64,000 nt of DNA from Candidatus Kaelpia imicola (GTDB lineage: Bacteria; Omnitrophota; Gorgyraeia; Kaelpiales; Kaelpiaceae). The position numbers and the translations under genes were made by a program. The stretch spans positions 1,064-65,063 of the forward strand of contig JAVCCL010000018.1 of the NCBI GenBank assembly GCA_030765505.1. The letters run 5' to 3'. The notes beneath the pieces are model-generated. The model was not told where the DNA came from and did not search any database. It saw only the letters and a program-made list of their open reading frames with translations. Below are positions 22,277-64,000 of this stretch, piece after piece. How positions within the stretch are numbered: position 1 is the first letter of the stretch; the number at the start of each line of letters is the position of its first letter.

Positions 22277-23475
22277 AAAGAGAAGGAGTAATAATATTTA
22301 GCGATATAAAGCTAGGTGAGGCTCTAAAGAAGGCTCTTAAGATCGGCCGTCTTGAGGTTTTGGATGTTGTGCGTGACTCCAATTTAAAGGGACGGGGAGG
22401 AGCCGGTTTTCCAACAGGTGTTAAATGGAATCTTGCTGCAACATCATCCGATAACAAAAAATATATTGTTACTAATGCCGATGAAGGTGAACCCGGTACT
22501 TTTAAAGACAGGATTCTTTTAACAGAGTATCCTAAGCTCCTATTTGAAGGCATGATTATAGCAGCCTATGCAATAGGGGCAGAGAAGGGGTTTCTCTATC
22601 TTAGAGGAGAGTATAAGCTGCTCTTGCCTAAGCTTAAGAGAGTCTTAAAAGATATCAGAGCTAAGAACCTGCTTGGAGATAAGATACTTGGAAATAAAGA
22701 TTTCAGCTTTGATATTGAGATAAGGCTTGGTTTTGGAGCCTATGTCTGCGGTGAAGAGACTGCTCTCATTGAGTCACTCGAAGGTCATAGAGGTGAACCG
22801 AGGAATAGGCCTCCCTTCCCTGTCTATACCGGTTATAACGGTCATCCGACAGTCGTAAACAATGTTGAGACGCTCTCAAATATAGCCCCTATAATATTAA
22901 AGGGGCCGGAGTGGTTTAAGAGTATTGGGACTGAGGCCTCAGCAGGATCTAAAATAATAAGCGTCTCTGGTGACTGTAAGAAGCCTGGAGTATATGAGGT
23001 ACCGTTTGGTACTTCAATAAATAAAATATTAAAATTGGTCGATGCCTCTGATATAAAGGCTGTTGTGGTTGGCGGTGCATCAGGTCTTTGCATTGGAAAG
23101 GATCAGTTTAATCGTAGAGTAGGGTTTGAGGACTTACCAACAGGCGGTTCTATCATGGTCTTTAATAATAAGAGGAGTCTCATGGATGTTGTTGAGAACT
23201 TTTTAGAGTTCTTTAAGGATGAGTCCTGCGGGCAATGCACTCCTTGCAGAGAAGGTATTCCTGTTTTAATTGAAGGTGTTAATATGATTAAGAGAGGAGA
23301 GTGTAATGAATCCTATCTTAAGAGTCTTCTGTCGCTCTCCGAGACAATGCAGTTGGCTTCAAAGTGCGGCCTGGGCCAGTCTGCACCTAATATCTTTGTC
23401 TCGGTGATAAATGATTTTAAAAAAGAGTATAGACTGTCCAGTAAAAAAAGAGAGGAGATAGCATTCAATGGATAA
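22273..23475 (+). CDS. NuoF-like NAD(P)H/FMN-binding [4Fe-4S] subunit (HydB-like, short form)
   Basis: GRGGAGFPTGVKW FMN/NADH motif and ESCGQCTPCREG [4Fe-4S] motif. Only 400 aa, so it lacks the extra ferredoxin domains seen in bifurcating HydB proteins. Confidence 0.85.
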   Translation: MKREGVIIFSDIKLGEALKKALKIGRLEVLDVVRDSNLKGRGGAGFPTGVKWNLAATSSDNKKYIVTNADEGEPGTFKDRILLTEYPKLLFEGMIIAAYAIGAEKGFLYLRGEYKLLLPKLKRVLKDIRAKNLLGDKILGNKDFSFDIEIRLGFGAYVCGEETALIESLEGHRGEPRNRPPFPVYTGYNGHPTVVNNVETLSNIAPIILKGPEWFKSIGTEASAGSKIISVSGDCKKPGVYEVPFGTSINKILKLVDASDIKAVVVGGASGLCIGKDQFNRRVGFEDLPTGGSIMVFNNKRSLMDVVENFLEFFKDESCGQCTPCREGIPVLIEGVNMIKRGECNESYLKSLLSLSETMQLASKCGLGQSAPNIFVSVINDFKKEYRLSSKKREEIAFNG

Positions 23476-38102: not shown

Positions 38103-40517
38103 ATGGTAGATTCCAGCTGGAAAGTAGTCTATAACGGATTTGATCCTGAAGAAGAGTCTCTTCGGGAATCGATCTGCACTCTTGCAAACGGCTATATCGG
38201 GGTAAGAGGAGCTGCTTATGAGTCCGGTGCTTCGCGTATCCATTATCCCGGGTCTTATCTCGGGGGAGGTTATAATAAGCTCCCTACCAATATTGCGGGA
38301 AGGACTGTATACAATGAAGACCTTGTCAATATTCCAAACTGCCTGCCTATAACGTTTAAGATTGCAGGTAGTGACTGGTTCTCTCCTTCAAGAGCCAAGA
38401 TAAGATTTTATCGTCAGGAGCTTGATATCAGGCGCGGGGTCTTAAAGAGGGATATAAGGTTCCAGAACCGGCTGGGACATAAGACACATATAGAGAGTCT
38501 TAGAGTTGTAAGTATGGCCAATCCCCATCTAATAAGCTATAAATATATTATAACCCCGGAAAATTACAGCGGCTGGATTACTGTCAGGACTATGCTTGAC
38601 GGTGCGGTTATAAATGCAGGTGTTGAGCGCTATAGACAGCTTAACTCAAAACATCTGATTCCTGTATCTTTAGGAAAGTTCAGCTCTAATGGTGTCTATC
38701 TTGTAATGAAGACCTCTCAATCTAAGATTACAATTGCTCAAGCCTCAAAAGTCCGTGTCTTTACTTCTAGTGCTGAGAAGAGAGTCAATATAAAACATAT
38801 CAGCAGAGGTAAGGAGAGGATAGATCAGGTATTCAGGTTATATCTAAAGCAGGGCAGGTGTTATGAGATAGAGAAGGTAGTAGCGGTCTATACATCTAAA
38901 GATCAGGGAATAGAGGAGCCTCTGGATTCTGCAATTCACTTGGTTAGGAGAGTATCAAAGTTTGAGAGCGTTCTAAAACCCCACGAGAGTCTCTGGGATG
39001 ATCTGTGGAGGAAGTTTGATATTCAGATTGATAGCGATATCTTCTCTCAGAAAGTATTAAGGCTCCACATCTTCCACCTTCTTCAGTCGGCCTCAGCTCA
39101 TATCACAAAGATAGATGCCGGCCTTCCTGCTAGAGGTTTACATGGCGAGGCATATAGGGGTCATATCTTCTGGGACGGGATATTTGCGATGGCGCTGTAT
39201 GACCTTCATCTGCCTGAGATATCTGAGTCTCTCCTGCTCTATCGCTACAGGAGATTGGATTGGGCTAGAAAGTATGCCAGAAGAGAGAAGGCCAAAGGAG
39301 CAATGTTTCCCTGGCAGAGCGGCTCAACGGGAGAAGAGGAGACCCAGATTGTCCACCTCAATCCCTTATCGGGTGAGTGGGGCCCGGACTACAGCCGTAA
39401 CCAGCGCCATGTCTCACTTGCAATTGCCTATAACGTTTGGCGTCATTATATGAAGACAAAGGATGCCGGCTTTCTTGCAGATTACGGAGCTGAGCTGATA
39501 CTCTCTATTGCCAGGTTCTTTGCCTCGATATCTAAGTTTGATCAGGAAGACGGCAGGTACCATATTGAGGGTGTTATGGGCCCGGATGAATTCCATGAGA
39601 AGTATTCAGATTCAGAAGAAGCGGGTTTAAAAGATAATGCCTATACGAATCTTATGACTGTCTGGCTGCTTATAAGAGCAAAGGAGACATTAAGTATCCT
39701 CTCATCTCAAGATAGACGCCGAATATCACGCAAGATAGGTTTTAAGAAAGAAGAGCTTGCGCTTTGGGAAGATATTACCCAGAAGATGAATGTTATCATA
39801 AATGAAGATGGTATTATTGCGCAGTTCGATGGCTACTTCGGGCTTAAGGAGCTTGATTGGGATAAGTATCGTGAAAGCTATGAGAGCATAGAGCGTCTGG
39901 ACAGGATTCTTAAAGCCGAAGGTAAGTCTCCTGATGATTATAAAGTAACTAAACAGGCTGATCTTCTGATGTTTTTCTATCTATTGAATTTGGCAGAGGT
40001 AAAAGAGATATTTAATAATCTGGGTTATGAATTCAGTAAAGATACTCTGAATAAAAACTATAAATATTATGTTAAGCGTACTTCTCATGGTTCTACCTTA
40101 AGCAAAGTAGTACACTGTTATATTGCTCACCTTTTGAATAAACCTAAAGAGACCTGGAGATGGTTCAATGAGGTGCTGGAGTCCGATATCTTTGATATTC
40201 AGAGCGGTACAACCTCTGAGGGAATACATATCGGTGTTATGGGCGGCTCTATAGATATTGTATTGCGCGGTTTTATAGGTTTAAGTGTTTTGAAGGATAG
40301 AATTAAACTCAACCCCCGTATTCCAAGGCGATGGCAGAGGATAAAATTTAGGATTAACTACAGAGGCAGCTGGATAACTTTCTCTGTAACAAATAGGCAG
40401 GTTATTGTCTTTGTTCAGGGGCCTAAGAATAAGATCTTTCCTACAGCTATTGAGATTGGTTCTAAGACTTACAGTGTTATCTATGGAAAACGCTCTAGAT
40501 TTACTATTAAGAATTAA
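38103..40517 (+). CDS. Glycoside hydrolase family 65 phosphorylase (second copy; trehalose/trehalose-6-P/kojibiose phosphorylase-like)
   Basis: GEAYRGHIFWDGIFAMALYDLHLPE catalytic motif and the same domain order as the 5835-8186 copy. Starts 2 nt after the upstream fusion gene. Confidence 0.88.
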   Translation: MVDSSWKVVYNGFDPEEESLRESICTLANGYIGVRGAAYESGASRIHYPGSYLGGGYNKLPTNIAGRTVYNEDLVNIPNCLPITFKIAGSDWFSPSRAKIRFYRQELDIRRGVLKRDIRFQNRLGHKTHIESLRVVSMANPHLISYKYIITPENYSGWITVRTMLDGAVINAGVERYRQLNSKHLIPVSLGKFSSNGVYLVMKTSQSKITIAQASKVRVFTSSAEKRVNIKHISRGKERIDQVFRLYLKQGRCYEIEKVVAVYTSKDQGIEEPLDSAIHLVRRVSKFESVLKPHESLWDDLWRKFDIQIDSDIFSQKVLRLHIFHLLQSASAHITKIDAGLPARGLHGEAYRGHIFWDGIFAMALYDLHLPEISESLLLYRYRRLDWARKYARREKAKGAMFPWQSGSTGEEETQIVHLNPLSGEWGPDYSRNQRHVSLAIAYNVWRHYMKTKDAGFLADYGAELILSIARFFASISKFDQEDGRYHIEGVMGPDEFHEKYSDSEEAGLKDNAYTNLMTVWLLIRAKETLSILSSQDRRRISRKIGFKKEELALWEDITQKMNVIINEDGIIAQFDGYFGLKELDWDKYRESYESIERLDRILKAEGKSPDDYKVTKQADLLMFFYLLNLAEVKEIFNNLGYEFSKDTLNKNYKYYVKRTSHGSTLSKVVHCYIAHLLNKPKETWRWFNEVLESDIFDIQSGTTSEGIHIGVMGGSIDIVLRGFIGLSVLKDRIKLNPRIPRRWQRIKFRINYRGSWITFSVTNRQVIVFVQGPKNKIFPTAIEIGSKTYSVIYGKRSRFTIKN

Positions 40518-51195: not shown

Positions 51196-51221
51196 ACATT
51201 CGGTCTAATATTATTGTCAAC
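51178..51221 (+). repeat. 44-bp composite direct repeat, copy A (ATTGTAAAC-TTATTGTAAAC-13 nt-TTATTGTCAAC)
   Basis: Matches copy B at 52254-52297 in architecture, differing at one A/C and in the spacer. Overlaps the stop codons of the convergent OsmC-like and HTH-GHKL genes. Confidence 0.7.
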
Positions 51222-52236
51222 CAATATGTTTTATCATTGCATCAATAGCTTTATTGGTATTTATGGTCTCTATTTCAATACTTGGATAGTTATTTTTAAA
51301 AACTCTAAATATCTCATCTGCAAAACCTTGTCCTATGCCTCTAACTCCTTTAAAGTTAAGTCTTATCTCTTTAAACTTTTTTAAATTGAATAATAATCTT
51401 TTAGCCTCAGAGCGGGAGAGATAGGAGTCTTTCTCCTTAGTGAAAAGATTTATAGTTACAGCGGTTTTAGAAAATTTATAATCGTATTTTTCGTTACTAT
51501 ACTCATCAAAAATAGTTTTTAATCTCTTTTTGGAGTTTTTGCTGATTGTGAAATTGACTGAAGTTCCTCTTTTGTATTTTATCTTTTGTGTAAATAGATC
51601 ATTTTTTATGTTATCAAAGGTAACCTCTATGTTATGGCTCTTTATGAGAAGCTTATTAGATGCTTTTGATGTAAAAAACAATCCTTCTCCGGAATGGTAT
51701 TTTTTTGCCGTAGTAGTTTTGCCTTTGATCAATTCTTGTAAAGCTTCGTACTCATCCTCTAAGCCGAATTTTTTTTTAATGTTTTCAAATATTCCTATCC
51801 CTTGGTCGTTTATTACAAAGTTTATATTATAGTTATCAACTTTTAATTTAACTTTGGATCTTTTTGATTTAGAATGGTCGATTGCATTATTAAGTATTTC
51901 TGTAAAGGCATAGGATAGGATATCAAATATATTTTTTCTCAGTAGATGTTTTAAATCATATTGAACATTGATTTTATTAAAAACTCTATCTTCTTTTAAA
52001 TTATGAAGTAAACAATCTCTACTTAGCTCTATCGTTAAGTTGTCTGTTTTTTTATCTTTTAGTGCATACTTTACGCCCCTAGTGGTGCCGATTTTTTTTA
52101 TTACCCCTTCAGCGATTAGTCGTTTGATATGTTTATGTATTCCTTGTCTAGTTAACCCCGTAGCTTTAGCTATCTCTTCTATTGTAATATATTCTTGTTG
52201 TCCCAACCTGCTTAAAATTCTATTTTTAATATTCAC
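51217..52236 (-). CDS. HTH - GHKL (histidine-kinase-like) ATPase - DUF4325 (STAS-like) protein
   Basis: Winged HTH EEIAKATGLTRQGIHKHIKRL. GHKL N-box NNAIDHS, G1 DQGIGI and G2 GEGLF. C-terminal ...LNFKGVRGIGQGFADEIFRVF resembles DUF4325. Preferred start is GTG at 52236 (MNIKNRILSRL...). The track's TTG at 52296 would translate the repeat array. The gene is very AT-rich. Confidence 0.65.
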   Translation of the reverse strand: MNIKNRILSRLGQQEYITIEEIAKATGLTRQGIHKHIKRLIAEGVIKKIGTTRGVKYALKDKKTDNLTIELSRDCLLHNLKEDRVFNKINVQYDLKHLLRKNIFDILSYAFTEILNNAIDHSKSKRSKVKLKVDNYNINFVINDQGIGIFENIKKKFGLEDEYEALQELIKGKTTTAKKYHSGEGLFFTSKASNKLLIKSHNIEVTFDNIKNDLFTQKIKYKRGTSVNFTISKNSKKRLKTIFDEYSNEKYDYKFSKTAVTINLFTKEKDSYLSRSEAKRLLFNLKKFKEIRLNFKGVRGIGQGFADEIFRVFKNNYPSIEIETINTNKAIDAMIKHIG

Positions 52237-52243
52237 GGTAATA

Positions 52244-52272
52244 ATTTTAACATATTGTAAACTTATTGTCAA
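52244..52272 (-). promoter_or_regulatory. Near-consensus promoter inside direct-repeat copy B (TTGACA-17-TAAAAT on the minus strand)
   Basis: Minus-strand TTGACA is the reverse complement of TGTCAA at 52267-52272. TAAAAT is the reverse complement of 52244-52249, 7 nt before the GTG start at 52236. Confidence 0.45.
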
Positions 52273-52297
52273 CCTTGCATTAAATATTATTGTCAAC
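52254..52297 (+). repeat. 44-bp composite direct repeat, copy B (ATTGTAAAC-TTATTGTCAAC-13 nt-TTATTGTCAAC)
   Basis: See copy A. Lies in the 5' region of the minus-strand HTH-GHKL gene. Confidence 0.7.
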
Positions 52298-52428: not shown

Positions 52429-52788
52429 ATGAGAAATGGCAAGGTTTTTATCTCTTTGTTTTTAATCTTTTGCTGCCTATCGTTTATTTTTAATGAAGTA
52501 TCTTCTGCACATTCCCCCGAACGGGTAGAGATTAAATTCGTAGGCAGCCTGCTTAAAATTAAGGTATACCATAGCGTGGGAAATACAAATATGCATTATG
52601 TAAAATATATTAACGTATATGTAAATGGGAAGTGGGTTGCTAAGCAGCGTTTCTTCTCCCAGCAGTATGACAGTTATCAAGAGGCGGTCTTTAATATCCC
52701 GGACTTAAAAGCCAAAGATGTACTTCTGGTAATAGCCCATTGCAGTAGAAAGGGAAGAATAGATAAATCAATAATAGCTCCGAATTGA
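52429..52788 (+). CDS. Secreted small protein, paralog 1, with superoxide-reductase-like (desulfoferrodoxin Fe-domain-like) motifs
   Basis: Signal peptide, then AHSPE...VYHSVGNTNMHYVKYINVYV...AHCSRKG. AGGAGAG upstream. Confidence 0.5.
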   Translation: MRNGKVFISLFLIFCCLSFIFNEVSSAHSPERVEIKFVGSLLKIKVYHSVGNTNMHYVKYINVYVNGKWVAKQRFFSQQYDSYQEAVFNIPDLKAKDVLLVIAHCSRKGRIDKSIIAPN

Positions 52789-53132
52789 TGATTAGAATAA
52801 GAAAGATTACGGTTTTGGTCTTCTGCTTATCCTCCTTGCTCTTAACTGTTAGTTTTGCCCATCCTCCCTGGAAGATAACAATAGAGACCCGGGGTAAAGA
52901 TATAGAGGTAACTGTATATCATGAGGTGGCTGACCCTGAAGAGCATTATATAGAGAGAATAGATGTATACTTAAATGGCATCAGACATGCGGACATGGAG
53001 TTTTCTACTCAAACAGACGATCTCCAGATTGTAAGGCTTAGTCTTCCCCCTTTGAAAAAAGGAGATTTTATAGATGTTATGGCCTTTTGTAATAGAGGGG
53101 GAGAGCTAATTGAAAATTTGACTGTAGAATAA
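52785..53132 (+). CDS. Secreted small protein, paralog 2, with superoxide-reductase-like motifs
   Basis: Signal peptide, then AHPPW...VYHEVADPEEHYIERIDVYL...AFCNRGGEL. Compare SOR KHVPVIE...AHPMEEKHYIQWIEL...YCNIHGHW. Overlaps paralog 1 by 4 nt. Confidence 0.5.
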   Translation: MMIRIRKITVLVFCLSSLLLTVSFAHPPWKITIETRGKDIEVTVYHEVADPEEHYIERIDVYLNGIRHADMEFSTQTDDLQIVRLSLPPLKKGDFIDVMAFCNRGGELIENLTVE

Positions 53133-53178: not shown

Positions 53179-53367
53179 ATGAAAAAGCTGGCTCAGTTTT
53201 TAGTAGTAGTCGGAGGTTTAAACTGGGGGCTGGTTGGTTTTTTCAATCTAGACCTTGTTGCCAGAATCTTCGGCGGGTTCTCAACGGTATCGAGGGTTAT
53301 CTATGCCCTTATAGGCCTCTCAGCACTTCACCTGGTTATTATTTCACTTAAGAGAAAGGTAAATTAA
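53179..53367 (+). CDS. DUF378 family small membrane protein
   Basis: GGLNWGLVGFFNLDLVARIFGG...YALIGLSALHLV matches the DUF378 signature. AAAGGAGG RBS. The overlapping track ORF 53151-53351 is in another frame and is rejected. Confidence 0.7.
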   Translation: MKKLAQFLVVVGGLNWGLVGFFNLDLVARIFGGFSTVSRVIYALIGLSALHLVIISLKRKVN

Positions 53368-53566
53368 TTTAAGTGATTTTTGTTCTTCAGAGAGTTTCCT
53401 TCCTTTATATATACAGTATAAGAGACGAGTTTAGTTTTGAGTCAGATTTTAAGCGGTCAAAAGAATGAAAAAAAGTTTTAGAAGATGATTTTTTTTCTTG
53501 ACGTAGTAGCATAATTTAAATTATTATCTTAACAGTTATATATAAACATATTAGTAATCTTAATAT

Positions 53567-56008
53567 ATGAGAAAAAAAACAAGCTTACAATATAGACCAG
53601 AAGCAAAGAGACTTCTGGTTTTTCTTTTAGCAGCTCTCTTACTAACTTCCTTAAGCCCTGCATTATATGCTGCCGGTAGAGACTCTTCCATTGAAGAGGA
53701 GAGAGCAAAGGCTCAGAAGTTAATCCAGCAGGAAGAGAAGGAAGATAGGCGTGAGAAGCAGGCCAGAATAAACAGCCTTTATAAAGAAGCACTCTCTTTC
53801 TATTACGAAGATAATCTAAGAGCAGCTCAGGAGACATTTGAATTGATTCTCCTTATAGCTCCGGATGAGAAAAAAGCAAATAGTTTTATAGAGAGTAAGA
53901 TTCCTGCAAGATCTGAAAAGTTAGTAGAGTTAAAACAGAGAGAGGCAGAGAGAGAAGCAAAGAAGAGGGAAGAGGAGCTTAAGCGTTTAAGAGCCAGGGC
54001 AGAGAGAGAGGCTAAGAGACAGATAGAAGAGCAGGAGCGTGACCAGAAAAAGGCAGAGCTTGAGAGAGAACGTGCCCAGCGTGAAGCAGAGCGTATAAGA
54101 GAGAGACAGAGCATAGAGGAAGAGAAGCAGGCTAAGACAGCAGAGAGAGAGAGGAAGCGTGCTGATAAGGAAGCAGAATTAGAGAGAAAACGCGCAGAGA
54201 AAGAAGCTAAAAGAGCAAGGCAGGATAGAGTAGGTGAGATTTGTGAAGAAGCACTATCTTATTACAAAGAAGGTAATATAGACCAGTCTATAAATTCATT
54301 CCAGCAGGTTCTTAAATTAGATCCGGATAATAAGAGAGCAGAGAGCTACTTAAATAATAAGATTCCTGCTAAGAGAGAGCGCCTTAATGAGATTGCAGAG
54401 CGCGAAAGAGAGAGTCAGAGAGTAGAGAAAGAGAAAGAACTATCTAAATTAAAAGAGAGAGCCCAAAAAGAGGCTCAAGCTCAAGAGAGAGAGCTGGCCA
54501 AAGAGAAGAAGCTTGCTGAAGCTATAGCCGGGAAGCAGGCCAAGAGAATAGAGAGAGAGAAGAAGCTTGCTGAGGCTGAAGCCGAGAAGCATGCCAAGAG
54601 AATAGAAAAAGAGAAGAGGTTGGCTGGAAAAGAGGCTAAGAAGCAGGCTGAGATAGCAGAGAAAAAGGCTCAAAAAGAAACAGCGAAGTTAGAGAGAGAG
54701 AAGAAGCGCGCTGAAAAAGAGGCTCAAAAACAGGCTAAGAAATTAGAGAGAGAGAAGAGGTTGGCTGGAAAAGAGGCTAAGAAGCAGGCTGAGATAGCAG
54801 AGAGAGAGGCTCAAAAGGAATCTAAAAAGTTAGAGATAGAGCAAAAAAGCGCCAGTATAGATACTAAGAGAGAGACAGCAAGGTTAGAAAAAGAGAAGAG
54901 GTTGGCTGAAAAAGAAGCTAAGAAGCAGGCTAAGATAGCAGAGAAAGAAGCCAGAAAACAGGCAAAAATAGCTAAGAAAGAAGCTAAGAAACTTGCAAAA
55001 GCAGAAGGAGTAGAGGAGGAAGTTAAAGAGGTAAGAGAGAAAAAAGAGAAGGCTCCTCGAGTAATCAGTGAAGATAAGCTTAAGAGAAAAGCAGAGGTAG
55101 AAGAGAAGCTTAGAAAGAAAAGAGAGGCCAGGGAAGCAAAGCTTGCCAAGAAAAAAGGGAAGCTGGAAGATAAGAAAGCTGAGAAAATTAAGACAAGAGA
55201 AGATAAAATAAGAGTTGAAGAAGAAGCCCGTATTGCAGCTACGCAGAGCGATTTCATTACTATAAACAGAGTTGTTACTACGCCTGGCTTGGTTCAGGAT
55301 GCAGATGCTTTTGTTGAGGCTAAAAGAGAAGAAGAGTCTATCGCTCTATATAACTACGCGTTAGATGTAACAAAAGATAAATCAATCAGGAAAGAGATTG
55401 CGCTTAAGAAGAGAGCTGCTTTAAAGGCGATAAAGAAGAAAGATAAGCAGAAGGCAAGAGACGAGTATAAGCAGGAAGTGAAGAAAAAGCATGAGACTCA
55501 TCGTGCCAAGATAGAGGCTAAGAGAGAGCAGCGTACTCAAAAGAAAGAGAATAGTAGAAAGATAAACGACCTCTATAGAGAAGCGCTTTCATTATATTAT
55601 GATAATAAGTTTGATGAAGCAGAGGCTAAGTTTAATGAGATCTTAGGATTCTCACCTGATGAAAAAAGAGCCAGGAAGTTTATAGACGTTAAGATTCCTG
55701 CAAGAAAAGAGCAGCTTGAGAATTTAGAAAATAAAACTAAATTACGTAAAGATAAAATAGAAGAGAAGAGCCGTGCTGATAGAGAGGCTAAGAAGCAGGC
55801 TGAGATAGCAGAGAGAGAGGCTCAAAAAGAAACAGCGAAGTTAGAGAGAGAGAAGAAGCGTGCTGAAAAAGAGGCTCAAAAACAGGCTAAGAAATTAGAG
55901 AAAGAAAAGAGGTTAGCTGATAAAGAAGCTGAGAAGGCTCGCATTAAAGCTGAAAGAGAAGAGAAGAAGCAGGAAAAAGAAGAGGAAATTCAGGGAGATA
56001 TAAAATAG
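53567..56008 (+). CDS. Secreted Lys/Glu-rich coiled-coil protein with three conserved TPR-like modules
   Basis: Signal peptide MRKKTSLQYRPEAKRLLVFLLAALLLTSLSPALYA. Three copies of an approximately 55-aa module, each ending in KIPA[RK]xExL (aa ~60-120, ~225-285, ~635-695). Long charged low-complexity helical runs (AKKQAEIAE..., EKKRAEKEAQKQAKKLE...) lie between them. Stop TAG at 56006-56008 directly abuts the tpsB ATG at 56009. Confidence 0.7.
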   Translation: MRKKTSLQYRPEAKRLLVFLLAALLLTSLSPALYAAGRDSSIEEERAKAQKLIQQEEKEDRREKQARINSLYKEALSFYYEDNLRAAQETFELILLIAPDEKKANSFIESKIPARSEKLVELKQREAEREAKKREEELKRLRARAEREAKRQIEEQERDQKKAELERERAQREAERIRERQSIEEEKQAKTAERERKRADKEAELERKRAEKEAKRARQDRVGEICEEALSYYKEGNIDQSINSFQQVLKLDPDNKRAESYLNNKIPAKRERLNEIAERERESQRVEKEKELSKLKERAQKEAQAQERELAKEKKLAEAIAGKQAKRIEREKKLAEAEAEKHAKRIEKEKRLAGKEAKKQAEIAEKKAQKETAKLEREKKRAEKEAQKQAKKLEREKRLAGKEAKKQAEIAEREAQKESKKLEIEQKSASIDTKRETARLEKEKRLAEKEAKKQAKIAEKEARKQAKIAKKEAKKLAKAEGVEEEVKEVREKKEKAPRVISEDKLKRKAEVEEKLRKKREAREAKLAKKKGKLEDKKAEKIKTREDKIRVEEEARIAATQSDFITINRVVTTPGLVQDADAFVEAKREEESIALYNYALDVTKDKSIRKEIALKKRAALKAIKKKDKQKARDEYKQEVKKKHETHRAKIEAKREQRTQKKENSRKINDLYREALSLYYDNKFDEAEAKFNEILGFSPDEKRARKFIDVKIPARKEQLENLENKTKLRKDKIEEKSRADREAKKQAEIAEREAQKETAKLEREKKRAEKEAQKQAKKLEKEKRLADKEAEKARIKAEREEKKQEKEEEIQGDIK
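54632..54767 (+). repeat. Intragenic near-identical DNA repeat, copy 1 (~136 bp)
   Basis: GAGGCTAAGAAGCAGGCTGAGATAGCAGAG...GAAATTAGAG...GAGGTTGGCTG recurs at 55784-55919 with a handful of mismatches. Partial further copies lie at about 54526-54610 and 54775-54815. Confidence 0.7.
55784..55919 (+). repeat. Intragenic near-identical DNA repeat, copy 2 (~136 bp)
   Basis: See 54632-54767. Confidence 0.7.
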
Positions 56009-57778
56009 ATGAAGTTTATTAACTTGCTTATTGCCTATGCTCTTATATTGAGTGTCCCGGTCTATGCGGATGAAGCAGCTAGTGCGGGGGATATGCAGCA
56101 GATTCTTGATAGATTGGACCAGCTTCAGGGTAAGGTAACTCAACTTGAGAGTAAGGTCAAAGAGCAGGATGAAGTGATTAAGAGGCAGAATCAGGCTCTG
56201 GATAAATTAGGTGAGATGGTACCGGAGGTTAAGAAAGCTATGGCACCGCCTGAGCCTAAGGTTGTTGTCAGTAATTTTGTCTTAAGCGGTGTAAATCTCT
56301 TTGATCCGATAGACTTTGAGCCTGTACTTAAGAAGTACAGGAGTAAAGAGTTAGGAATAAGCGACTTAAAGACTATATCCGATGAGTTAACAGCGTTCTA
56401 CCGTTCTAAAGGTTATATTACATCTCTTGCCTATGCTCCGACTCAGGAGATTGAGAATGAGACTGTTGAGTTTAGGGTAATAGAGGGTAGAGTAGGTAAT
56501 ATTGAATTGGAAGGCGGAGAGTACTTTAAGAAAGAGACAATGGCCAAGAGAATTACGATTGAAGAGGGTCAGGTCCTTAATTATGAAAGACTTCAGCGTG
56601 ATGTAAGAAAATTAAATAAGCAGCCTGACAGAACTATGAAGGCAATCCTTCTTCCGGGTCAAGATAAAGGAACAACAGATATACTCATCAAGATGGAAGA
56701 AGAGAGCGATCCAAAACATTTCTATTTCGACTGTAGTAATACTGGAACTGAAGAGACAAAGACAGCCCGTTTTGGTCTAGGTTTTGCTCATAATAATCTT
56801 CTTGGTTATGATGATATCTTATCCATTAAAGCTAGAGTCGGTGACTGGGATATCTACTCAATAAGCGCGGACTACAATGTTCCAATTAATAAGTATAATA
56901 CCCGTATCGGTGCCTATGGAATATTTTCTCATACGGATATAGGCGGTCAGTTTACAGTTATCGAGCCTGAGGGTTCAGCCACAGCATTAGGTGCATATAT
57001 TACTCACCCTCTATTTGATAAAGATTATTTTGATCCAGTGGCTATCAATCTATCAAGTGATGTTATAGCAGGACTTGATTTAATAGATGTTAAAAACATG
57101 CTGTTAGGTGAAGAGACTTCTCACGATGTCTTACGCGTTGCTAAATTAGGTATTAGCTTTGATGAGAGAGATGCATTGGGAAGAACGTTCTTTAATAATG
57201 AGTTTAGAGTTGGAATCGATGGGCTTGGTTCGATGGATAGCAATGATGAATCCTCATCCATTATAGATGCAGGAAGTGAGTTCATGAAATATACCGGTAC
57301 TCTAACTCGTATAACACGTCTTCCATTCAGCATGATGTTTATAAATAACTTAAAGTTCCAGCATACAAATAATCCGCTTGTTACAAGCGAACAGCTGAGT
57401 CTGGGCGGAGCTGATACAATAAGAGGTTATCCTCAGAATGATTACTTAGCAGACTTTGGTTATGTATGTACGTTGGAGCTGCGTACACCCGCATTTATAT
57501 TCCCACGTGAAATTAAAGTTCCTTACGATGATAAAAAGACTCCAATTATGGATGCAGTTCAGTTTGTATACTTTGTTGACTTTGGTAAAGGACATCGTAA
57601 GAATCCGCGTGTAGGTGAAACAAAAGATCAGTTTATGATTGGAACCGGTTTCGGTTTCAGGTTTGATCTATATGAACATCTGCGTGCCAGACTGGACTTT
57701 GGATTCCCTGCGGGTAATGAAGAACCTTCAGACGGATCCTCCGGTACAGTCCACGTAGGCGTACAATACGAATTCTAA
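56009..57778 (+). CDS. Two-partner-secretion outer-membrane transporter (TpsB; ShlB/FhaC/HecB family)
   Basis: Signal peptide, an approximately 60-aa coiled-coil N-region, a POTRA-like segment (ITSLAYAPTQEIENETVEFRVIEGRVGNIELEGGEYFKKETMAKRI), and a C-terminal beta-barrel ending in an aromatic residue (...VGVQYEF). Confidence 0.82.
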   Translation: MKFINLLIAYALILSVPVYADEAASAGDMQQILDRLDQLQGKVTQLESKVKEQDEVIKRQNQALDKLGEMVPEVKKAMAPPEPKVVVSNFVLSGVNLFDPIDFEPVLKKYRSKELGISDLKTISDELTAFYRSKGYITSLAYAPTQEIENETVEFRVIEGRVGNIELEGGEYFKKETMAKRITIEEGQVLNYERLQRDVRKLNKQPDRTMKAILLPGQDKGTTDILIKMEEESDPKHFYFDCSNTGTEETKTARFGLGFAHNNLLGYDDILSIKARVGDWDIYSISADYNVPINKYNTRIGAYGIFSHTDIGGQFTVIEPEGSATALGAYITHPLFDKDYFDPVAINLSSDVIAGLDLIDVKNMLLGEETSHDVLRVAKLGISFDERDALGRTFFNNEFRVGIDGLGSMDSNDESSSIIDAGSEFMKYTGTLTRITRLPFSMMFINNLKFQHTNNPLVTSEQLSLGGADTIRGYPQNDYLADFGYVCTLELRTPAFIFPREIKVPYDDKKTPIMDAVQFVYFVDFGKGHRKNPRVGETKDQFMIGTGFGFRFDLYEHLRARLDFGFPAGNEEPSDGSSGTVHVGVQYEF

Positions 57779-57963
57779 AGAAGTATTTGTTCTTTATATA
57801 TAAGCCTTTCCTTTATATATAGGAAGGTAGATGGAAAAAGCCGAATATGGACCTGACCAATAGGTTAGGATACTATAGAGAAGAAGAACTAGAAGTACAC
57901 AGGCGAAGAGAAGGAAGAAAGAAATAAAAAGATTAATAAACTTTTTAAAAAGGAGTAACTAAA

Positions 57964-60900
57964 ATGAATACCAAAAAAATGGGTATTTGTAATCGTTTTT
58001 TTAGAATACTGTTTGCAGCACTATTTTTGCAGTATATGGCACTGCCGCCTACCCCCGTCTATGCCGAGGGTTTGCCTACTGGTATATCTGACCAGATAGG
58101 CTCATCCACGGTTACTGTTGAAGGGGATGCAATGACCCATACAACAGGCGATATGAAGTATTGGGGTGATGCTGAGTCTTTTGATATCGGTGTCAATAAT
58201 ACTTTAAATAGTATTGGTCCTAATGCTGGTGCGGTTATGCTCTATAATGTTACAGGTGATGCTGGTTCTAGCTTAGCGGGTGTTTGGAACAGTAACTGTA
58301 ACCAATTCCTGCTTAACCCTAACGGTATACTATTTACTGAGACTGCTCAGTTAAACCTTGGAGGTCTTGTAGCATCAACTCTGTCTATGACAAAAGAGGA
58401 TTTCTTATCTGGTAGTTATGTGCTATCAGGAGCTGATGTAGTTACTCTTGGCAATAATATAATAAATGAAGGTGCTATTGAGACTACCAATCCTTTTGGT
58501 GTTACCTTTGCATCAGGTGCAATAAGAAATACAGGCTCTATTAAAGCTAATCTTGGTGTCGTTAATATGATATCAGGTAAAGGCGTTACCCTTAATGTTG
58601 CAGGAGATGGTTCTATTCAGGCAGCAGTATCTCAGGATTTACTTAATAATGTCTATGATTCTGATGGGAGAAGAGTAGCTGTTGGTGTTGATAATGTCGG
58701 AACTATTCAAGCTGATGGTGGTGAAATAAGAATAGAAGTAGGAGCAGTTCAGGATGTCTTTGATACTCTTATAAATCAAGAAGGTGTAGTAAGAGCTGGT
58801 TCATTGGTTGAGAAAAATGGAAAGATTGTACTTATTTCAGATGATGAAGGAATAATACAGAATACAGGTACTATAACAGCATCTGCCATTGAAGATGGAG
58901 CAGATGGTGGAACAATTGAGATGCGTGGTTCAAAAGTTGGTCAGTTTGGTGAAGTAAGAGTTGATGCACTTGGTGAAGGTGATGGTGGAAGTATAACTTT
59001 ATATGCTAATGATGTAGTTGCTTTATCAAGTGGAAGTATTACAACTGCTAATGCAAATGTGGATGGAAGTGGTGGTGAAATAATAGTTTATTCACCTGAG
59101 ACAGCTTTATTCTGGCAGAATGCAAGAATCGAAGCTAAAGGTGGTTCTGCTTCTGGAGATGGTGGATTTGTTGAGGTGTCAGGTAAAGAACACATTGAGA
59201 TATATGGTATAGTTGATGCTAGCGCAGCTAATGGCTCTAGCGGTTTGTTCTATATGGATCCTACCGATGTTACTCTTTCCGATGCGACAGTTGGTATGGA
59301 TAACTCTCCTACTTGGGATCCGATTGCTGTTGATCCTAATACTGGCACTATTAACGTAGCCACTATTGTAACATCTCTTGAAGCTGGTACATCTGTGTCA
59401 GTTGATACTTTTGATGATAATGCCGGTGGTGGTACTGGAAGAATTATCGTGGCTAACGCAATTAGTGTAGATTTATCAGCTGCTGGAGGATTGACTGTTG
59501 AGGCTCCTACGTTAACCCTGAATGCGCAGGATGATATTGATATTAACGCTTCAATTGGTGTAAGCGCTACTGATGCTGGTGGCGATTTGCTCAACTTAAC
59601 TTTGAACGCAACTAATGGTGTCGATGTTGGCGCTAATATCACCGATCTATCTGGCGGTACGTTTACATCCATTGGAACAACATTTAATAATACCGGTGGT
59701 GCAATTACCACTGGCGGTGGCGCAGTAGATCTTAGCGGGCACACAGGCGCAATAACTATCGGCGCAGCAATAAATGCTGGTGCTGGTACCTTTCATTCTC
59801 ATGGAACTAATTTTAATAACACTGATGGCATAATTACTACAACAGATACTAGCGCAACAGCTGTACAAATAAACAATACTGGGATAGTAACCATTGGTGC
59901 TAATATTCTATCTTCAGGCGAAATAACCATTGATAGTGCTTCAAGCGTTTCAGTAGCAGCCGCAGCAACTGGTAATACTTGTACTAATTTAGATATTGAT
60001 ACAACAGGTGCGTTTGCTGCAACTGGGGGTTCAAAAATTACCGGTGGCGGAGATGGAACAGACCTCAACATTAACGCGGCAGGCATAGCCTTAGATGGAA
60101 CAGCAGGCGGGCAGTTAATAAATACGGCAGGTGGAAAAATAACCCTTGTTTCAACTGGCGCTAATAGTGTATTTTTAGAAAATGATTCCATAAATAATGC
60201 AACAGGGCTTGTGAGTTTGACTTCAGCAGGCCAAATTAGAGGTTCTACCTTTGGCGGTAACGATGGTATTGCAGAAATTGATGCTGATGGTAATGTTACC
60301 TTTTCTGCCAATGGCACTGGTAATCCAGCCCAGCTTGAGATTACTGGCGATGGAAGTGGAGATAGCACTCTAACTATTACCAACACCGGAGCAAATAACG
60401 TAGATATCCAGGAATTAACCAATCAGTTCAACCAGGTTACTATTACCCAACAGAATGCTTCATCTTGGATTGACATAGATTTTAGCGATGCGGATCTTGT
60501 TGACATCGACGGCGCTATTATAGAGAACCTTGTCTTGAGCAATGGCGACGTAGGCTTTACCTATTCACTTACACCTGTCGCAGCTTTAAATGTCTGCGGA
60601 ACTGCCTTTACCACCGGAGCGACCTCTGCAGTAAGCATAACAGCAAATGGCGTAATTACTCAAACCAGTGCCGTAACAGTTAACGGAGGAGGCGTTACTT
60701 TTGCAGCCGGTGCAGCAAATGACATAACTTTAAGTAATGCCAATAATGATTTTATTGGTGCTGTAGCTGTTACTACGGGTGATGATGTAACTTTAAGAGA
60801 TGTAAATGCCATAATTTTAGGTGCATCCACTATTTCCGGAAACTTAGCCGTAACCTCTTCCGGTAATATAACCGATAATGGTAGCGCATTATCTGTAACG

Positions 60901-63900
60901 GGAACGACCACGCTGATCCCGGGAGCGGGAAACAGCATCATCTTGGATACTGCCGGAAACAATTTTACCGGCGCTGTATCAGTAACCAATGGAACAGATG
61001 CAACATTTGTAGATACCAATGCTTTGGCTATGGGGACAACGTCTATTACAGGAGTATTAACCCTTACAGCTGGCGGCAACATAACAGATAGTGGAGTAAT
61101 AACTGCAGGAACCCTTACCACAACCAATGCTACCGGATCTACGATATTGGATCAGAACAATATCATTTCTAACCTTGGTGCAACAATCACCTCCATCGGT
61201 GGCAACTTTGAGTTAACCAACACCACACCCCTTGCTTTAACCGATATAACAGCCACAGGCCATGATATAACCATAGACAACACTGGTAATGCTGTGACAT
61301 TTAATACAGGAAGCAATATAGCCGCGAATAACTTTACAGTAACAGCTTCAGCAATTACTACTTTGAATAATTCAGATTTAAGTGCTGTAGCTACTTCAAC
61401 AACACTTCAGCCTAATGCAGCAGGAACTGCTATAGGGCTAGCTGGCGGTGCAGGAGCATTCAGTCTTGATGCAAGTGAAATAACAGTTCTTAAGGCATCC
61501 GGCGGTTCGGTAGTAATAGGAAGAGTTGCGGGAGCAACAGGCGCGCTTACACTCGGAGCAGATGTAGACCTTGCAGGTAAAACTGCAACTATCTACAGCG
61601 GCCGAATTAATGATGCTAGTAATACAATTTCAGCAGACACTCTTACCTTAATTTTAAGTTCTACTGCAGCAGGCGGCAATACAGTAAAGACCAATGTAGC
61701 AACACTGGCAGCTGATACTACAGGCGGCACAGCCACAGCAGACAGAGCCTTGATTGTCACCGAAACAGATGGAGTAGCTCTGAGTACCATTACACTTAAT
61801 GACGGTGCATTAAATGTTACTACCAGCGGTGCAGTTACAACTTCAGGGGTAATTACTACTACCGGCATTACTACCATTGCAGCCGGCGCGGGGAATAATA
61901 TAACCCTTAACAATGCAGATAATGATTTCAGCACCGTAGCCATAACCACAGGTAACGATGTAACTTTAAGAGATACCAATGCTATAGTCTTAGGAGCATC
62001 TACTATTTCCGGAGCATTAGATGTAACATCCTCTGGCTCTATAACAGATAATGGCGGTGCATTAGTTGTAACCGGGACAACTACTCTTGCACCAGGTGCA
62101 GGAAGCAGTATTGTTTTAAATACCGCAACAAATGACTTCACCGGTGTTGTATCAATAACTAATGGCATAAATGCAACATTGGTAGATGTCGATGATATAA
62201 CCCTTGGAGCAATGGCAATTACCGGGACATTGAATATAACAGCTGGCGCTGCAATTGCAGATGATTTGATCCAGGCTACATTAGTAAATGCCTCCAGTTT
62301 GATTATGACTGCTGCAACGTCAATAGGTGCTGCAGGTGACGGAGATATTGATACGACGAGTGTTACTTCTTTGACAGTAGATGCCAATGATGATATATAC
62401 GTTGACGGTGATAGTCAGCTGGCATCATTGACAATCACATTAGATCCTAACGGAGCTGCAACATATGATTTGACAAACTTTACAAACCTTACAGAAAATA
62501 TTACTACAGATGGGACAAACCTGACAATAGCCCAATTAGACACAAGTACTGCTACGGCAATGTCCTTAACTGCAGATACAGGAAACATCGCAGTCACAAG
62601 TTTTGATTCTGTTACTACAGGTACACTTAATTTAACTGCCAGTAGCGGAAATATAGCTGTGGGAGAGATTGGGATAGCTACTGGAAGCGGAGATGTCACC
62701 TTAAGTGCATCCGGCACAATCACTGATTCTAATGCTAATGTAAATACCAATATTACTACTACAGGAGCTGTTAGCTTAACAGGTCTTACTGGCATTGGTA
62801 TAAGCGGTGGAGATGCTGTTGATATTGCAAGCGCCACAGCTTTGACGATTGACACCAATGGTTATTTTAGCGTTATCGGTACTGGCGGGGGATTAACCTT
62901 AACCGACCTGACAATAACTCTTGATACGGCTGGTGCTGGAGTATATTCGCTGACCGGTATCAACAACAACACCCTGACGCTGGTCGATGATGTTGGTAAT
63001 TTAACCCTGACAGCTTTTAATAACATAGGTACAACAAATCTTTCACTCACAAATGATACAGGAAATATTACAGTTGCAAGTTTTGATACAACCGGTGCAG
63101 GTACGCTTAGTTTGACTGCCAGTAGCGGAAATATAATTTTGACTAACGCTGCTGATACAATGGTTACCGGGAGCGGTGCCGTATCGGTTACAGCCAGCGG
63201 TACGATAAATGATACTGCTGATGCTGCAGGAAATGCAGTCACTACTACAGGAACTCTGACACTGGATTCAAATAGTACTATCGGAGCAAGTGGCAACTAT
63301 TTGGATGTAGAAGTTGATGGTCTAACTGTTGATAGTCAAGGTATAGCATATATACGTAATAATGTAGCCGCAGATACTACATTATATATTGATACCAATA
63401 ACACGGATTATCATTATATTCAGCCTACTAATAACATTCTTATTAATAGGGTAGATGCCGGGACTGCTGATGTTTATATAACAGCAACAGCAGGATCTGT
63501 ATTGGATCATGCTTCAGATTCTACAGTTGATATAATAGGCGATGATCTGACTATAATAATATCTAGTGGTGTTTATGATATTGGTGCCTCAGGTAATGCA
63601 CTTGATACTCAAGTTACTAATATCTATACTCTGTCTACAGCGAATGGTGACATCTACATTAATGAGACAGATAGCGGTGTTACACAGACTGGCGGAGCAG
63701 GAATTTCAGCTGTTGGGTCTGATGTAAATATTACAGTTGCAGGTCCTTATACAGCCAGCACTGCTATTTCTGCAGGTACAACTGGTACTATCACAATAGA
63801 TGTTAATGATAATGTTGCTGATGATGGAGTCTTTACTACCAATGCTGCTGGTACTCTAACTGCAGGTTCAGGTAGTGGTGGGATTACTATTACAGCAGAC

Positions 63901-64000
63901 GGCGGTGTCACTTTAGGTCTTGCTGCAGTAACAACAGACGGTGCTATCTCAATTGATGCTGATAATGATTCAAATAATATCGGTACATTTACAAGCAATG
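57964..64000 (+). CDS. Giant TpsA exoprotein (filamentous-hemagglutinin-like beta-helical adhesin/toxin), 5' end with TPS domain; 3' end beyond the window
   Basis: ATG at 57964 preceded by AAAAAGGAG. Extended signal peptide MNTKKMGICNRFFRILFAALFLQYMALPPTPVYA. TPS secretion domain with the hallmark ...NQFLLNPNGILFTETAQ... (NPNGI). The remainder is Gly/Thr/Asn/Ala/Val-rich beta-helix repeats. Frame 1 was checked open at roughly 15 spot points through to 64000. It is absent from the ORF track because there is no in-window stop. All minus-strand track ORFs in 59250-63998 are antisense artefacts. Confidence 0.85.
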   Translation, partial: MNTKKMGICNRFFRILFAALFLQYMALPPTPVYAEGLPTGISDQIGSSTVTVEGDAMTHTTGDMKYWGDAESFDIGVNNTLNSIGPNAGAVMLYNVTGDAGSSLAGVWNSNCNQFLLNPNGILFTETAQLNLGGLVASTLSMTKEDFLSGSYVLSGADVVTLGNNIINEGAIETTNPFGVTFASGAIRNTGSIKANLGVVNMISGKGVTLNVAGDGSIQAAVSQDLLNNVYDSDGRRVAVGVDNVGTIQADGGEIRIEVGAVQDVFDTLINQEGVVRAGSLVEKNGKIVLISDDEGIIQNTGTITASAIEDGADGGTIEMRGSKVGQFGEVRVDALGEGDGGSITLYANDVVALSSGSITTANANVDGSGGEIIVYSPETALFWQNARIEAKGGSASGDGGFVEVSGKEHIEIYGIVDASAANGSSGLFYMDPTDVTLSDATVGMDNSPTWDPIAVDPNTGTINVATIVTSLEAGTSVSVDTFDDNAGGGTGRIIVANAISVDLSAAGGLTVEAPTLTLNAQDDIDINASIGVSATDAGGDLLNLTLNATNGVDVGANITDLSGGTFTSIGTTFNNTGGAITTGGGAVDLSGHTGAITIGAAINAGAGTFHSHGTNFNNTDGIITTTDTSATAVQINNTGIVTIGANILSSGEITIDSASSVSVAAAATGNTCTNLDIDTTGAFAATGGSKITGGGDGTDLNINAAGIALDGTAGGQLINTAGGKITLVSTGANSVFLENDSINNATGLVSLTSAGQIRGSTFGGNDGIAEIDADGNVTFSANGTGNPAQLEITGDGSGDSTLTITNTGANNVDIQELTNQFNQVTITQQNASSWIDIDFSDADLVDIDGAIIENLVLSNGDVGFTYSLTPVAALNVCGTAFTTGATSAVSITANGVITQTSAVTVNGGGVTFAAGAANDITLSNANNDFIGAVAVTTGDDVTLRDVNAIILGASTISGNLAVTSSGNITDNGSALSVTGTTTLIPGAGNSIILDTAGNNFTGAVSVTNGTDATFVDTNALAMGTTSITGVLTLTAGGNITDSGVITAGTLTTTNATGSTILDQNNIISNLGATITSIGGNFELTNTTPLALTDITATGHDITIDNTGNAVTFNTGSNIAANNFTVTASAITTLNNSDLSAVATSTTLQPNAAGTAIGLAGGAGAFSLDASEITVLKASGGSVVIGRVAGATGALTLGADVDLAGKTATIYSGRINDASNTISADTLTLILSSTAAGGNTVKTNVATLAADTTGGTATADRALIVTETDGVALSTITLNDGALNVTTSGAVTTSGVITTTGITTIAAGAGNNITLNNADNDFSTVAITTGNDVTLRDTNAIVLGASTISGALDVTSSGSITDNGGALVVTGTTTLAPGAGSSIVLNTATNDFTGVVSITNGINATLVDVDDITLGAMAITGTLNITAGAAIADDLIQATLVNASSLIMTAATSIGAAGDGDIDTTSVTSLTVDANDDIYVDGDSQLASLTITLDPNGAATYDLTNFTNLTENITTDGTNLTIAQLDTSTATAMSLTADTGNIAVTSFDSVTTGTLNLTASSGNIAVGEIGIATGSGDVTLSASGTITDSNANVNTNITTTGAVSLTGLTGIGISGGDAVDIASATALTIDTNGYFSVIGTGGGLTLTDLTITLDTAGAGVYSLTGINNNTLTLVDDVGNLTLTAFNNIGTTNLSLTNDTGNITVASFDTTGAGTLSLTASSGNIILTNAADTMVTGSGAVSVTASGTINDTADAAGNAVTTTGTLTLDSNSTIGASGNYLDVEVDGLTVDSQGIAYIRNNVAADTTLYIDTNNTDYHYIQPTNNILINRVDAGTADVYITATAGSVLDHASDSTVDIIGDDLTIIISSGVYDIGASGNALDTQVTNIYTLSTANGDIYINETDSGVTQTGGAGISAVGSDVNITVAGPYTASTAISAGTTGTITIDVNDNVADDGVFTTNAAGTLTAGSGSGGITITADGGVTLGLAAVTTDGAISIDADNDSNNIGTFTSN
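60704..61110 (+). repeat. Intragenic ~400-bp repeat in tpsA, copy 1
   Basis: Protein-level AAGAANDITLSNANNDFIGAVAVTTGDDVTLRDVNAIILGASTISGNLAVTSSGNITDNGSALSVTGTTTLIPGAG... parallels copy 2 at 61880-62290. Confidence 0.6.
61880..62290 (+). repeat. Intragenic ~400-bp repeat in tpsA, copy 2
   Basis: AAGAGNNITLNNADNDFSTVAITTGNDVTLRDTNAIVLGASTISGALDVTSSGSITDNGGALVVTGTTTLAPGAG... A further shorter repeat pair lies at 62578-62660 and 63058-63140 (TGNIxVxSFD...GTLxLTASSGNI). Confidence 0.6.

Follow-up and report, generated by a model that had tools for sequence, protein, structure and literature searches.

A type Vb secretion locus with a probable lineage-specific third component in the Omnitrophota bacterium Candidatus Kaelpia imicola

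With just two proteins, type Vb secretion counts as the minimal route by which very large proteins are moved across the outer membrane. What, then, is a third exported protein doing in such a locus? The question is raised by a stretch of 64,000 nucleotides (nt) from the uncultivated bacterium Candidatus Kaelpia imicola, phylum Omnitrophota (GenBank contig JAVCCL010000018.1, positions 1,064 to 65,063 of the forward strand; the whole stretch is called the window here). Three genes follow one another on its forward strand: an accessory gene of 813 amino acids (aa), the transporter gene tpsB (589 aa) and, after a gap of 185 nt, the passenger gene tpsA, which runs past position 64000 (Table 1). An initial annotation, made from the letters alone, had already proposed this order, the gap and a tie to uncultivated lineages, and all three are upheld by the list of open reading frames (ORFs), their translations and the source of the DNA. 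The tpsA frame is indeed open at the end of the window: frame 1 holds 2,012 codons from 57964 to 63999 and 0 stops, a point singled out beforehand as decisive. We conclude that the locus is probably a type Vb, or two-partner secretion (TPS), operon with a lineage-specific third component.

The first step is to establish the two known partners. ORF2 is a bona fide TpsB, that is, an Omp85 transporter of the FhaC/CdiB type. Pfam reports ShlB (PF03865, 85.6 bits against a cut-off of 22.7), POTRA_2 (PF08479, 71.5 against 24) and POTRA (32.4 bits). In an AlphaFold2 (AF2) model based on 30 relatives (predicted local distance difference test, pLDDT, of 82.7), DSSP finds two beta-alpha-alpha-beta-beta POTRA units and 16 barrel strands, in line with the POTRA-plus-barrel layout that had been proposed. 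Foldseek places CdiB (6wim; E 2e-31, TM 0.68/0.74) at the top and FhaC (4ql0, 4qky) next, all above BamA and TamA; CdiB 6wim is also the best solved match by sequence (E 8e-15), and FhaC is matched as well. The Omp85 loop-6 motif IRGY (approximately aa 471-474) and the barrel motif FVDFGKG (approximately aa 521-527) are present, with R472, G473, D524 and G526 invariant across the 30 relatives.

Ahead of the POTRA units TpsB had been credited with an extra coiled-coil region of about 60 aa, a claim that stands in part. Since the alignments to FhaC and CdiB start at comparable offsets (residue 91 of TpsB aligns to residue 69 of FhaC, and residue 57 to residue 24 of CdiB), the length of this segment is normal. 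The predicted helix is special as a lineage-specific feature: its a/d positions (I32, L36, L39, V43, L46, V50, Q53, I57, Q60, L64 and L67) form a perfect heptad pattern, which is conserved in the clade alignment, whereas outgroup TpsBs carry Pro-rich linkers instead. AF2 draws helices at aa 29-42 and 52-78 with low confidence (pLDDT 34-51), in the part where an H1 barrel plug of the FhaC type was looked for.

ORF3 is a bona fide TpsA. Its N-terminus matches TIGR01901 with 43 bits (cut-off 29.1) and, with the first 400 aa scanned alone, PF05860 with 47.7 (cut-off 33.5), which upholds the proposed N-terminal TPS domain with its NPNGI motif, the second point singled out beforehand as a possible refutation; in many phyla the homologues of this domain bear the annotation filamentous-haemagglutinin (FHA) N-terminal domain. 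The NPNL motif was found neither in this TpsA, which by eye reads LYNV at the equivalent position, nor in the TpsA of the orthologous locus L002. Because NPNL varies among TpsA subfamilies, its lack does not exclude membership. The classic extended signal peptide of the initial annotation had to be given up, as the signal measures only about 34 aa and ESPR (PF13018) has no match at E<=1 in the first 400 aa; many other TpsA matches do carry ESPR.

Behind the TPS domain the predicted long beta-helical shaft is present, with at least 1,700 aa of acidic stalk-type repeats. As much as 81% of the protein consists of G, T, N, A, V, S, D and I, with K+R at 1.7%, and the net charge is -160. DUF5649 (PF18886), which has been classed as a fibrillar-adhesin stalk domain (PMC8286594), gives 158 bits over five stretches (best at aa 1330-1399, nt 61951-62160), and no Fil_haemagg repeats are detected in this protein by Pfam. 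At the DNA level the repeats of tpsA share only 70-80% identity, and it is therefore unlikely that repeats were collapsed in the assembly.

The far end of TpsA was approached through relatives. The last 61 nt of the window have no exact match in the Joint Genome Institute (JGI) metagenomes, a word-indexed search with the window's TpsA returned only proteins of at most about 870 aa (none reaching the C-terminus), the sole indexed copy of the Kaelpia locus is a 4.2-kb ENA contig, and most TpsAs of the family are cut by contig ends. Three orthologues are complete (L002, 3,241 aa; L076, 3,331 aa; L083, 2,547 aa) and a fourth nearly so (L016, about 3,327 aa), and all four end in a common domain of about 180 aa, which carries the motif TERVEIxEPxPPGLVILNNxLMGGxNYGSGSxxGSILSRGYG and is 43-53% identical among them; four more loci run into the beginning of this domain where their contigs stop. 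Judged by these orthologues, the full length of the window's TpsA is probably about 2,500-3,400 aa. The protein had been called giant, and large it would be, but not exceptional, as this is the normal range for TpsAs of the FHA/CdiA class. The conservation of the C-terminal domain favours a fixed role, which might be anchoring or maturation, and the TpsA is, to go by its orthologues, most likely a fibrillar adhesin for attachment to cells or surfaces.

Two family members show irregular TpsAs. At L009 (CALGDN010000135.1) the TpsA frame of 1,165 aa ends around 10132 in ...DRKSTRLNSSHTDISRMPSSA, a peptide that we take to be typical of chimeric or contaminant assembly junctions, and this seemingly complete protein is probably artificially truncated. 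The TpsA of L011 is broken by masked runs of N.

The second step concerns the accessory protein itself. It starts with a hydrophobic, signal-like N-terminus, has no lipobox and no membrane anchor, and K+E+R+A+Q account for 67% of its residues. Apart from a single core that defines the family, of the pattern 'SDYITIK...YNYAYDI', and three TPR-like modules, which we call 'KIPxR' modules after the motif in which they end, about 440 aa consist of K/E/R/A-rich sequence. These spacers had been taken for a coiled coil, a label that proves wrong because they are charged and have no hydrophobic heptad core: 59-68% of their residues are charged and 8-13% are LIVMFYW, and the a/d positions, Ala included, are occupied to 0.32-0.39 at best (0.35 in the longest spacer, aa 283-555, which would measure about 41 nm as a single helix). 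They look like ER/K single helices that, according to the models, are punctuated by TPR-like hairpins; fully extended, the charged helices sum to approximately 66 nm.

For aa 555-730 the AF2 model (19 relatives) reaches a pLDDT of 92.4 and shows, in order, the strand-like SDFITIN segment (unstructured), a helical hairpin, a helix of 74 residues, the hairpin of module 3 and a long helix. The nearest PDB structures found with Foldseek are TPR co-chaperone domains, at E >= 0.08 and none of them significant, and no family in Pfam or NCBIfam covers the core. Pfam does match the core weakly to Psb31 (25.7 bits, cut-off 25), which we discount as the kind of likeness that helical bundles share in general.

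The evidence that carries our conclusion is the distribution of this protein. Loci around TpsB relatives were collected through a gene-position index, species-representative genomes and JGI metagenomes, and were scanned in six frames with hidden Markov models (HMMs); for the genome contigs a scan with the single TpsB sequence gave no relative, whereas an alignment-based scan succeeded. Collapsing the TpsBs at >=95% identity left 49 clusters in the Omnitrophota clade, 16 of them cut by contig ends and 33 assessable. Of these 33 non-redundant clusters, 25 have a core-bearing gene immediately ahead of tpsB. There is exactly one core per core-bearing locus, always in the same-strand ORF immediately upstream of tpsB, at a spacing of 0 or -4 up to about 33 nt (in Kaelpia the ATG of tpsB directly abuts the TAG stop of the accessory gene). 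The upstream ORFs match the core HMM at E 1e-20 to 1e-34 with a core identity of 17-40% among dozens of loci, and nearly all members of the family begin with signal-like N-termini.

The linkage also holds in reverse. A word-indexed search with the accessory core gave no match, and a core alignment of 13 sequences has no conserved stretch of 7-10 columns; the relatives were found by an exhaustive HMMER search with the core and module 3, which yielded 154 matches in 1.84 billion cluster representatives. Looking up the surroundings of two core-bearing proteins, P0213 and P0251, placed both directly upstream of POTRA_2/ShlB genes, followed at the P0213 locus by a TPS/DUF5649 gene. Neither core nor module was found in about 45 outgroup TPS loci (Competibacteraceae, cyanobacteria, Syntrophorhabdaceae, Verrucomicrobia and others, with TpsBs 22-31% identical). 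The accessory protein thus represents a real, small and uncharacterised family whose linkage to tpsB is tight and reciprocal, and the three-gene arrangement is a feature of the phylum Omnitrophota and not a one-off. Within the family the architecture ranges from rods with few hairpins, as in Kaelpia, to compact tandem arrays of 12 modules (L021, P0213). Charge follows one pattern at every locus: the accessories carry +2 to +19 per 100 aa and the TpsAs -3 to -11, with K+R around 2% in long TpsAs.

The TPS pair is a known system; the conserved helical third gene is what is new and previously undescribed. No paper connecting Omnitrophota with two-partner secretion came up in literature searches. 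Additions to TPS loci catalogued in a 2017 review comprise cdiI, bcpO, cdiC, hmw1C and hxuC, with nothing like the accessory gene (PMC5422565), which sustains the earlier view that a third, helical partner with a signal peptide is atypical.

Some members of the family carry unexpected labels: the metagenome-assembled genome records of L006, L007, L011, L016, L020 and L021 read 'uncultured Planctomycetia/Planctomycetales'. Either these are mislabels of automated pipelines or the locus reaches into the neighbouring Planctomycetes-Verrucomicrobia-Chlamydiae (PVC) lineage. Modules are moreover seen outside the family. The strongest module match is a protein of 1,901 aa with 17 modules and no true core in Chlorobium/Pelodictyon luteolum DSM 273 (L048; CP000096.1, 396583-414288). 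Its gene is flanked on one side by a TolC-like OEP gene and on the other by three genes for HlyD-type adaptors and one that is Peptidase_M50-like; the OEP protein has one module at its own C-terminus, and an adhesin-like protein of 6,678 aa is encoded immediately downstream. An apparent core in the Chlorobium protein P0210 was lost at a stricter threshold, so that modules alone are shared.

What the third component might do is suggested by loci that lack it. In three clusters without an accessory gene the TpsBs measure 786-1,025 aa and have 1-3 SH3b domains (PF08239, 91.5 bits) fused at the N-terminus, with basic Pro/Ala/Lys/Val linkers, all upstream of the same heptad helix (L056, L058-L062 and L064, from JGI metagenome contigs). 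We infer that this fusion is an alternative way to put basic, extended material with binding domains on the periplasmic N-terminus of TpsB. Since it replaces the accessory protein in a sister subclade, a periplasmic role by way of that N-terminus seems favoured.

On this basis we tentatively propose that the accessory protein is a periplasmic scaffold or chaperone for TpsB, for TpsA or for both, a mechanism that we hold as possible and not yet as probable. After Sec export it would remain in the periplasm in an elongated, basic form. Docking on TpsB, at the heptad helix or at the edge strand of a POTRA unit, would fall to its TPR-like hairpins and to the conserved, unstructured 'SDYITIK' strand. 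In addition to this docking, or in place of it, the protein would hold TpsA, which is very acidic and still unfolded, throughout its long transit.

Several observations weigh against our interpretation of the locus. Eight of the 33 assessable clusters have no adjacent accessory gene, and two of the eight, L008 and L054, retain the heptad helix of TpsB with neither accessory nor fusion; given these two, the accessory protein is not strictly required in cis. AF2 places the N-terminal helix of TpsB with low confidence. Extended helices of about 66 nm exceed a typical periplasm and fit a location on the surface at least as well. The complementary charges are weak evidence, because acidic passenger proteins are common. 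Furthermore, the C-terminus of the window's own TpsA lies past 64000, and its reading as an adhesin rests on orthologues.

The proposed mechanism can be pushed further, to an obligatory third subunit and hence to 'three-partner' secretion, though this we find rather doubtful. The accessory protein would then be a basic rod with TPR-like claws that binds the N-terminal helix of TpsB, tethers it across the periplasm or to the cell wall, and threads the acidic chain of about 2,500-3,400 aa. The 'KIPxR' module would, on the same supposition, be the mark of periplasmic proteins that aid the export of giant surface proteins, a broader and unrecognised class with the 17-module protein of Chlorobium luteolum among its members.

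It might be argued instead that the accessory protein works outside the cell, as a long basic rod at the surface with the task of coating, spacing or anchoring the acidic TpsA fibre; it would be co-expressed with the TPS machinery while being no part of it. A signal peptide with neither lipobox nor membrane anchor, a helical length greater than the width of the periplasm and a positive charge that complements the acidic TpsA would all suit such a rod. We nonetheless think it unlikely: neither a TPS domain nor another signal for export across the outer membrane is recognisable in the protein, some members are compact solenoids of 12 modules with few spacers, which is typical of a periplasmic binding scaffold and not of a fibre, and the SH3b-fused TpsBs put analogous modules on the periplasmic side of the transporter.

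A general envelope protein that aids TpsB and not TpsA, be it a TolA-like spacer, a peptidoglycan-associated protein or a factor of Omp85 biogenesis, appears improbable. The exclusive and reciprocal linkage speaks against it: in every core-bearing locus examined the gene accompanies tpsB, and not bamA or tol genes, and a single core-bearing gene is seen per locus. Such a factor would explain why the composition resembles domain II of TolA, and it has precedents in the TPR partners known for Omp85 proteins (BamD), with BamA complexes among the structural neighbours of TpsB; related TPR-like modules occur, too, in the TolC/HlyD exporter cluster of Chlorobium luteolum and on its OEP protein.

The initial annotation had also envisaged an effector or toxin domain beyond the window, which amounts to toxin delivery as in contact-dependent inhibition (CDI), with a toxin tip and an immunity gene past position 64000. 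CdiB is the best match of TpsB both in sequence and in structure, and the relevant end of TpsA does lie past the window. Against this, the four orthologous TpsAs share their C-terminal domain, which matches no Pfam family, toxin families included; VENN, VDNN and ELYN motifs were not found in the orthologues, and nothing in the ORFs downstream of tpsA in L083 points to a toxin or an immunity protein. As a conserved C-terminus without VENN makes a polymorphic toxin tip unlikely, we judge this reading very improbable and the expectation of toxin and immunity genes not supported. That ORF1 is merely a chance frame in purine-rich, low-complexity DNA, as the skews of the region (AT 0.49 and GC 0.40 in window 54001-56000) and antisense ORFs across it could suggest, is effectively refuted by conservation: the skews stem from the K/E/R/A-rich coding of the accessory gene and the antisense ORFs (e.g. 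54811-55257) are spurious, while the protein has a signal peptide, a non-repetitive conserved core, TPR-like modules, a confident fold prediction and orthologues in conserved position and coupling at dozens of loci.

The operon with an exported third component, as preferred here, can be compared with known systems. With FhaC/FhaB of Bordetella it shares a TpsB of two POTRA units and a 16-stranded barrel, for which FhaC is a structural match, a TpsA with an N-terminal TPS domain, NPNGI and a long beta-helical shaft, and, in the orthologues, a conserved C-terminal domain that is no toxin (FhaB has a conserved C-terminal prodomain). It differs in the conserved exported gene upstream of tpsB, in a TpsA without ESPR-type signal and NPNL, in a shaft of DUF5649 repeats with no Fil_haemagg detected, in a C-terminal domain of the orthologous TpsAs that matches no family, and in a predicted heptad helix where FhaC has the H1 plug and a Pro-rich linker. 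With CdiBAI the order tpsB before tpsA and the match of TpsB to CdiB are shared; the Kaelpia-type orthologues have neither a VENN/pretoxin motif nor a polymorphic C-terminus, an immunity gene is not recognisable, and there is the extra gene upstream.

Other TPS loci have likewise recruited additional genes: a glycosyltransferase in hmw1ABC/etpBAC, a TonB-dependent receptor in hxuCBA, the lipoprotein BcpO in bcpAIOB and an acyltransferase in cdiBCAI (PMC5422565). Those partners are mostly cytoplasmic enzymes or outer-membrane receptors, and none is an exported protein of TPR-like hairpins and charged helices; homology of the accessory protein to any of them was not detected by Pfam or NCBIfam. 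BamA-BamD and Slam (type XI) offer a parallel: in each, unfolded substrates are handled by a barrel transporter together with a TPR scaffold in the periplasm, and the hairpins of the accessory protein are TPR-like. BamD, however, is lipidated and has five canonical TPRs, and the TPR part of Slam is fused to the barrel, whereas the accessory protein is separate, not lipidated and built with long ER/K-type helices. A module-only relative has a faint TPR_Slam match, and in the absence of a significant sequence or fold match this likeness is an analogy only. Similarly, the spacers recall domain II of TolA and ER/K single alpha-helices (K/E/A/R-rich, about 60-68% charged, no heptad core, predicted long helices), but the protein has neither the membrane anchor nor the C-terminal domain of TolA, and the resemblance is one of composition and no evidence of homology.

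Signals for expression were sought in the intergenic sequence. The best sigma-70-like match of the region agrees at 10 of 12 positions and lies ahead of the accessory gene (Table 1), and both hexamers are kept at the same position in L002. Neither promoters nor terminators in the region exceed the number expected by chance, and since this holds for sigma-70-like sites the match is a candidate only. AAGGAG, a strong site, stands 8 nt 5' of the tpsA ATG; together with the purine-rich leader it is also kept in L002. The 14-mer TTCCTTTATATATA has two matches in the whole window, both intergenic and at the TPS locus (0.12 expected; one of 100 shuffles reaches two), and may be a shared, putative regulatory element. 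A similar TTGTTCTT motif precedes both copies. An Rfam scan of the intergenic regions of the locus gave no match.

Table 1. Features of the Kaelpia TPS locus and of its orthologues. Positions refer to the window unless another locus is named. a/d, heptad core positions.
Feature	Position (nt)	Strand	Basis or remark
14-mer TTCCTTTATATATA, copy 1	53400..53413	+	intergenic, upstream of accessory gene
Promoter-like site TTGACG-18-TATTAT	53498..53527	+	about 40 nt upstream of accessory gene; candidate
Accessory gene (813 aa), exported, basic (net +55), almost entirely helical	53567..56008	+	translation, family conservation
TPR-like 'KIPxR' module 1 (aa 61-125)	53747..53941	+	module HMM 108.5 bits; no Pfam TPR match
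TPR-like module 2 (aa 215-279)	54209..54403	+	module HMM 104.6; TPR_2 32.9 against 27, aa 227-255
Longest charged helical spacer (aa 283-555)	54413..55231	+	59% charged, 13% LIVMFYW, net +33
Family core 'SDFITIN...YNYALDVTKDK' (aa 559-635)	55241..55471	+	core HMM 93 bits
TPR-like module 3 (aa 659-723)	55541..55735	+	module HMM 103.2; Pfam TPR 18.1 bits, below threshold
tpsB, Omp85-family transporter (589 aa)	56009..57778	+	Pfam profiles, AF2 model, motifs
TpsB pre-POTRA helix (aa ~27-84), ends PPEPK	56087..56260	+	heptad a/d pattern, clade alignment
14-mer TTCCTTTATATATA, copy 2	57808..57821	+	tpsB-tpsA gap
tpsA, partial (at least 2,012 aa, open at window end), acidic FHA-like beta-helical exoprotein	57964..64000	+	no stop
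TPS secretion domain (aa 72-304), NPNGI aa 118-122	58177..58875	+	PF05860, TIGR01901
Diverged 300-nt direct repeat (60763-61062 and 61936-62235)	60763..62235	+	70% identical; copy 2 overlaps DUF5649 stalk repeat
TpsA C-terminal domain of about 180 aa, orthologues	L002 13237-13836; L016 21179-21730; L076 12413-12994; L083 13272-13901		

Upstream of the locus lie several small genes. Two tandem proteins of about 115-119 aa with signal-like N-termini (window 52429-52788 and 52785-53132, forward strand) share an invariant His, His and Cys and a weak Desulfoferrodoxin-type match; a homologue is found at L050 (11410-11790), on an unrelated contig, directly after a protein of 2,301 aa with about 16 modules (P0243). 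Between this pair and the accessory gene a hydrophobic protein of 62 aa is encoded (53179-53367, forward strand; MKKLAQFLVVVGGLNWGLVGFFNLDLVA...), presumably a small membrane protein of the DUF378 kind. The sole minus-strand gene near the locus (51217-52296) combines a winged helix-turn-helix, a histidine-kinase-like ATPase and a STAS-like DUF4325, and may be a regulator, judging from these domains. The rest of the window holds ordinary chromosomal functions, among them an [FeFe]-hydrogenase gene (23468-25390), glycine cleavage, Suf and malate/lactate dehydrogenase. Two genes for GH65 phosphorylases/hydrolases and a fused HAD/trehalose-phosphatase gene (5835-8186, 36482-38101 and 38103-40517, forward strand) suggest a metabolism of disaccharides of the trehalose/maltose type.

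Overall, a third component that is phylum-wide, translationally coupled and exported would be a new kind of addition to the type Vb core. It would bear directly on the open question of how passengers of several thousand residues are kept competent in the periplasm without ATP, and its interest rises if the accessory protein is truly a required third subunit. The SH3b-fused TpsBs of the sister subclade provide a natural experiment on its role. Omnitrophota are ultra-small bacteria that have been proposed to live as symbionts or predators (PMC10066038). For this phylum, whose large surface proteins mostly lack annotation, the Kaelpia locus represents a concrete and testable candidate apparatus for surface attachment.

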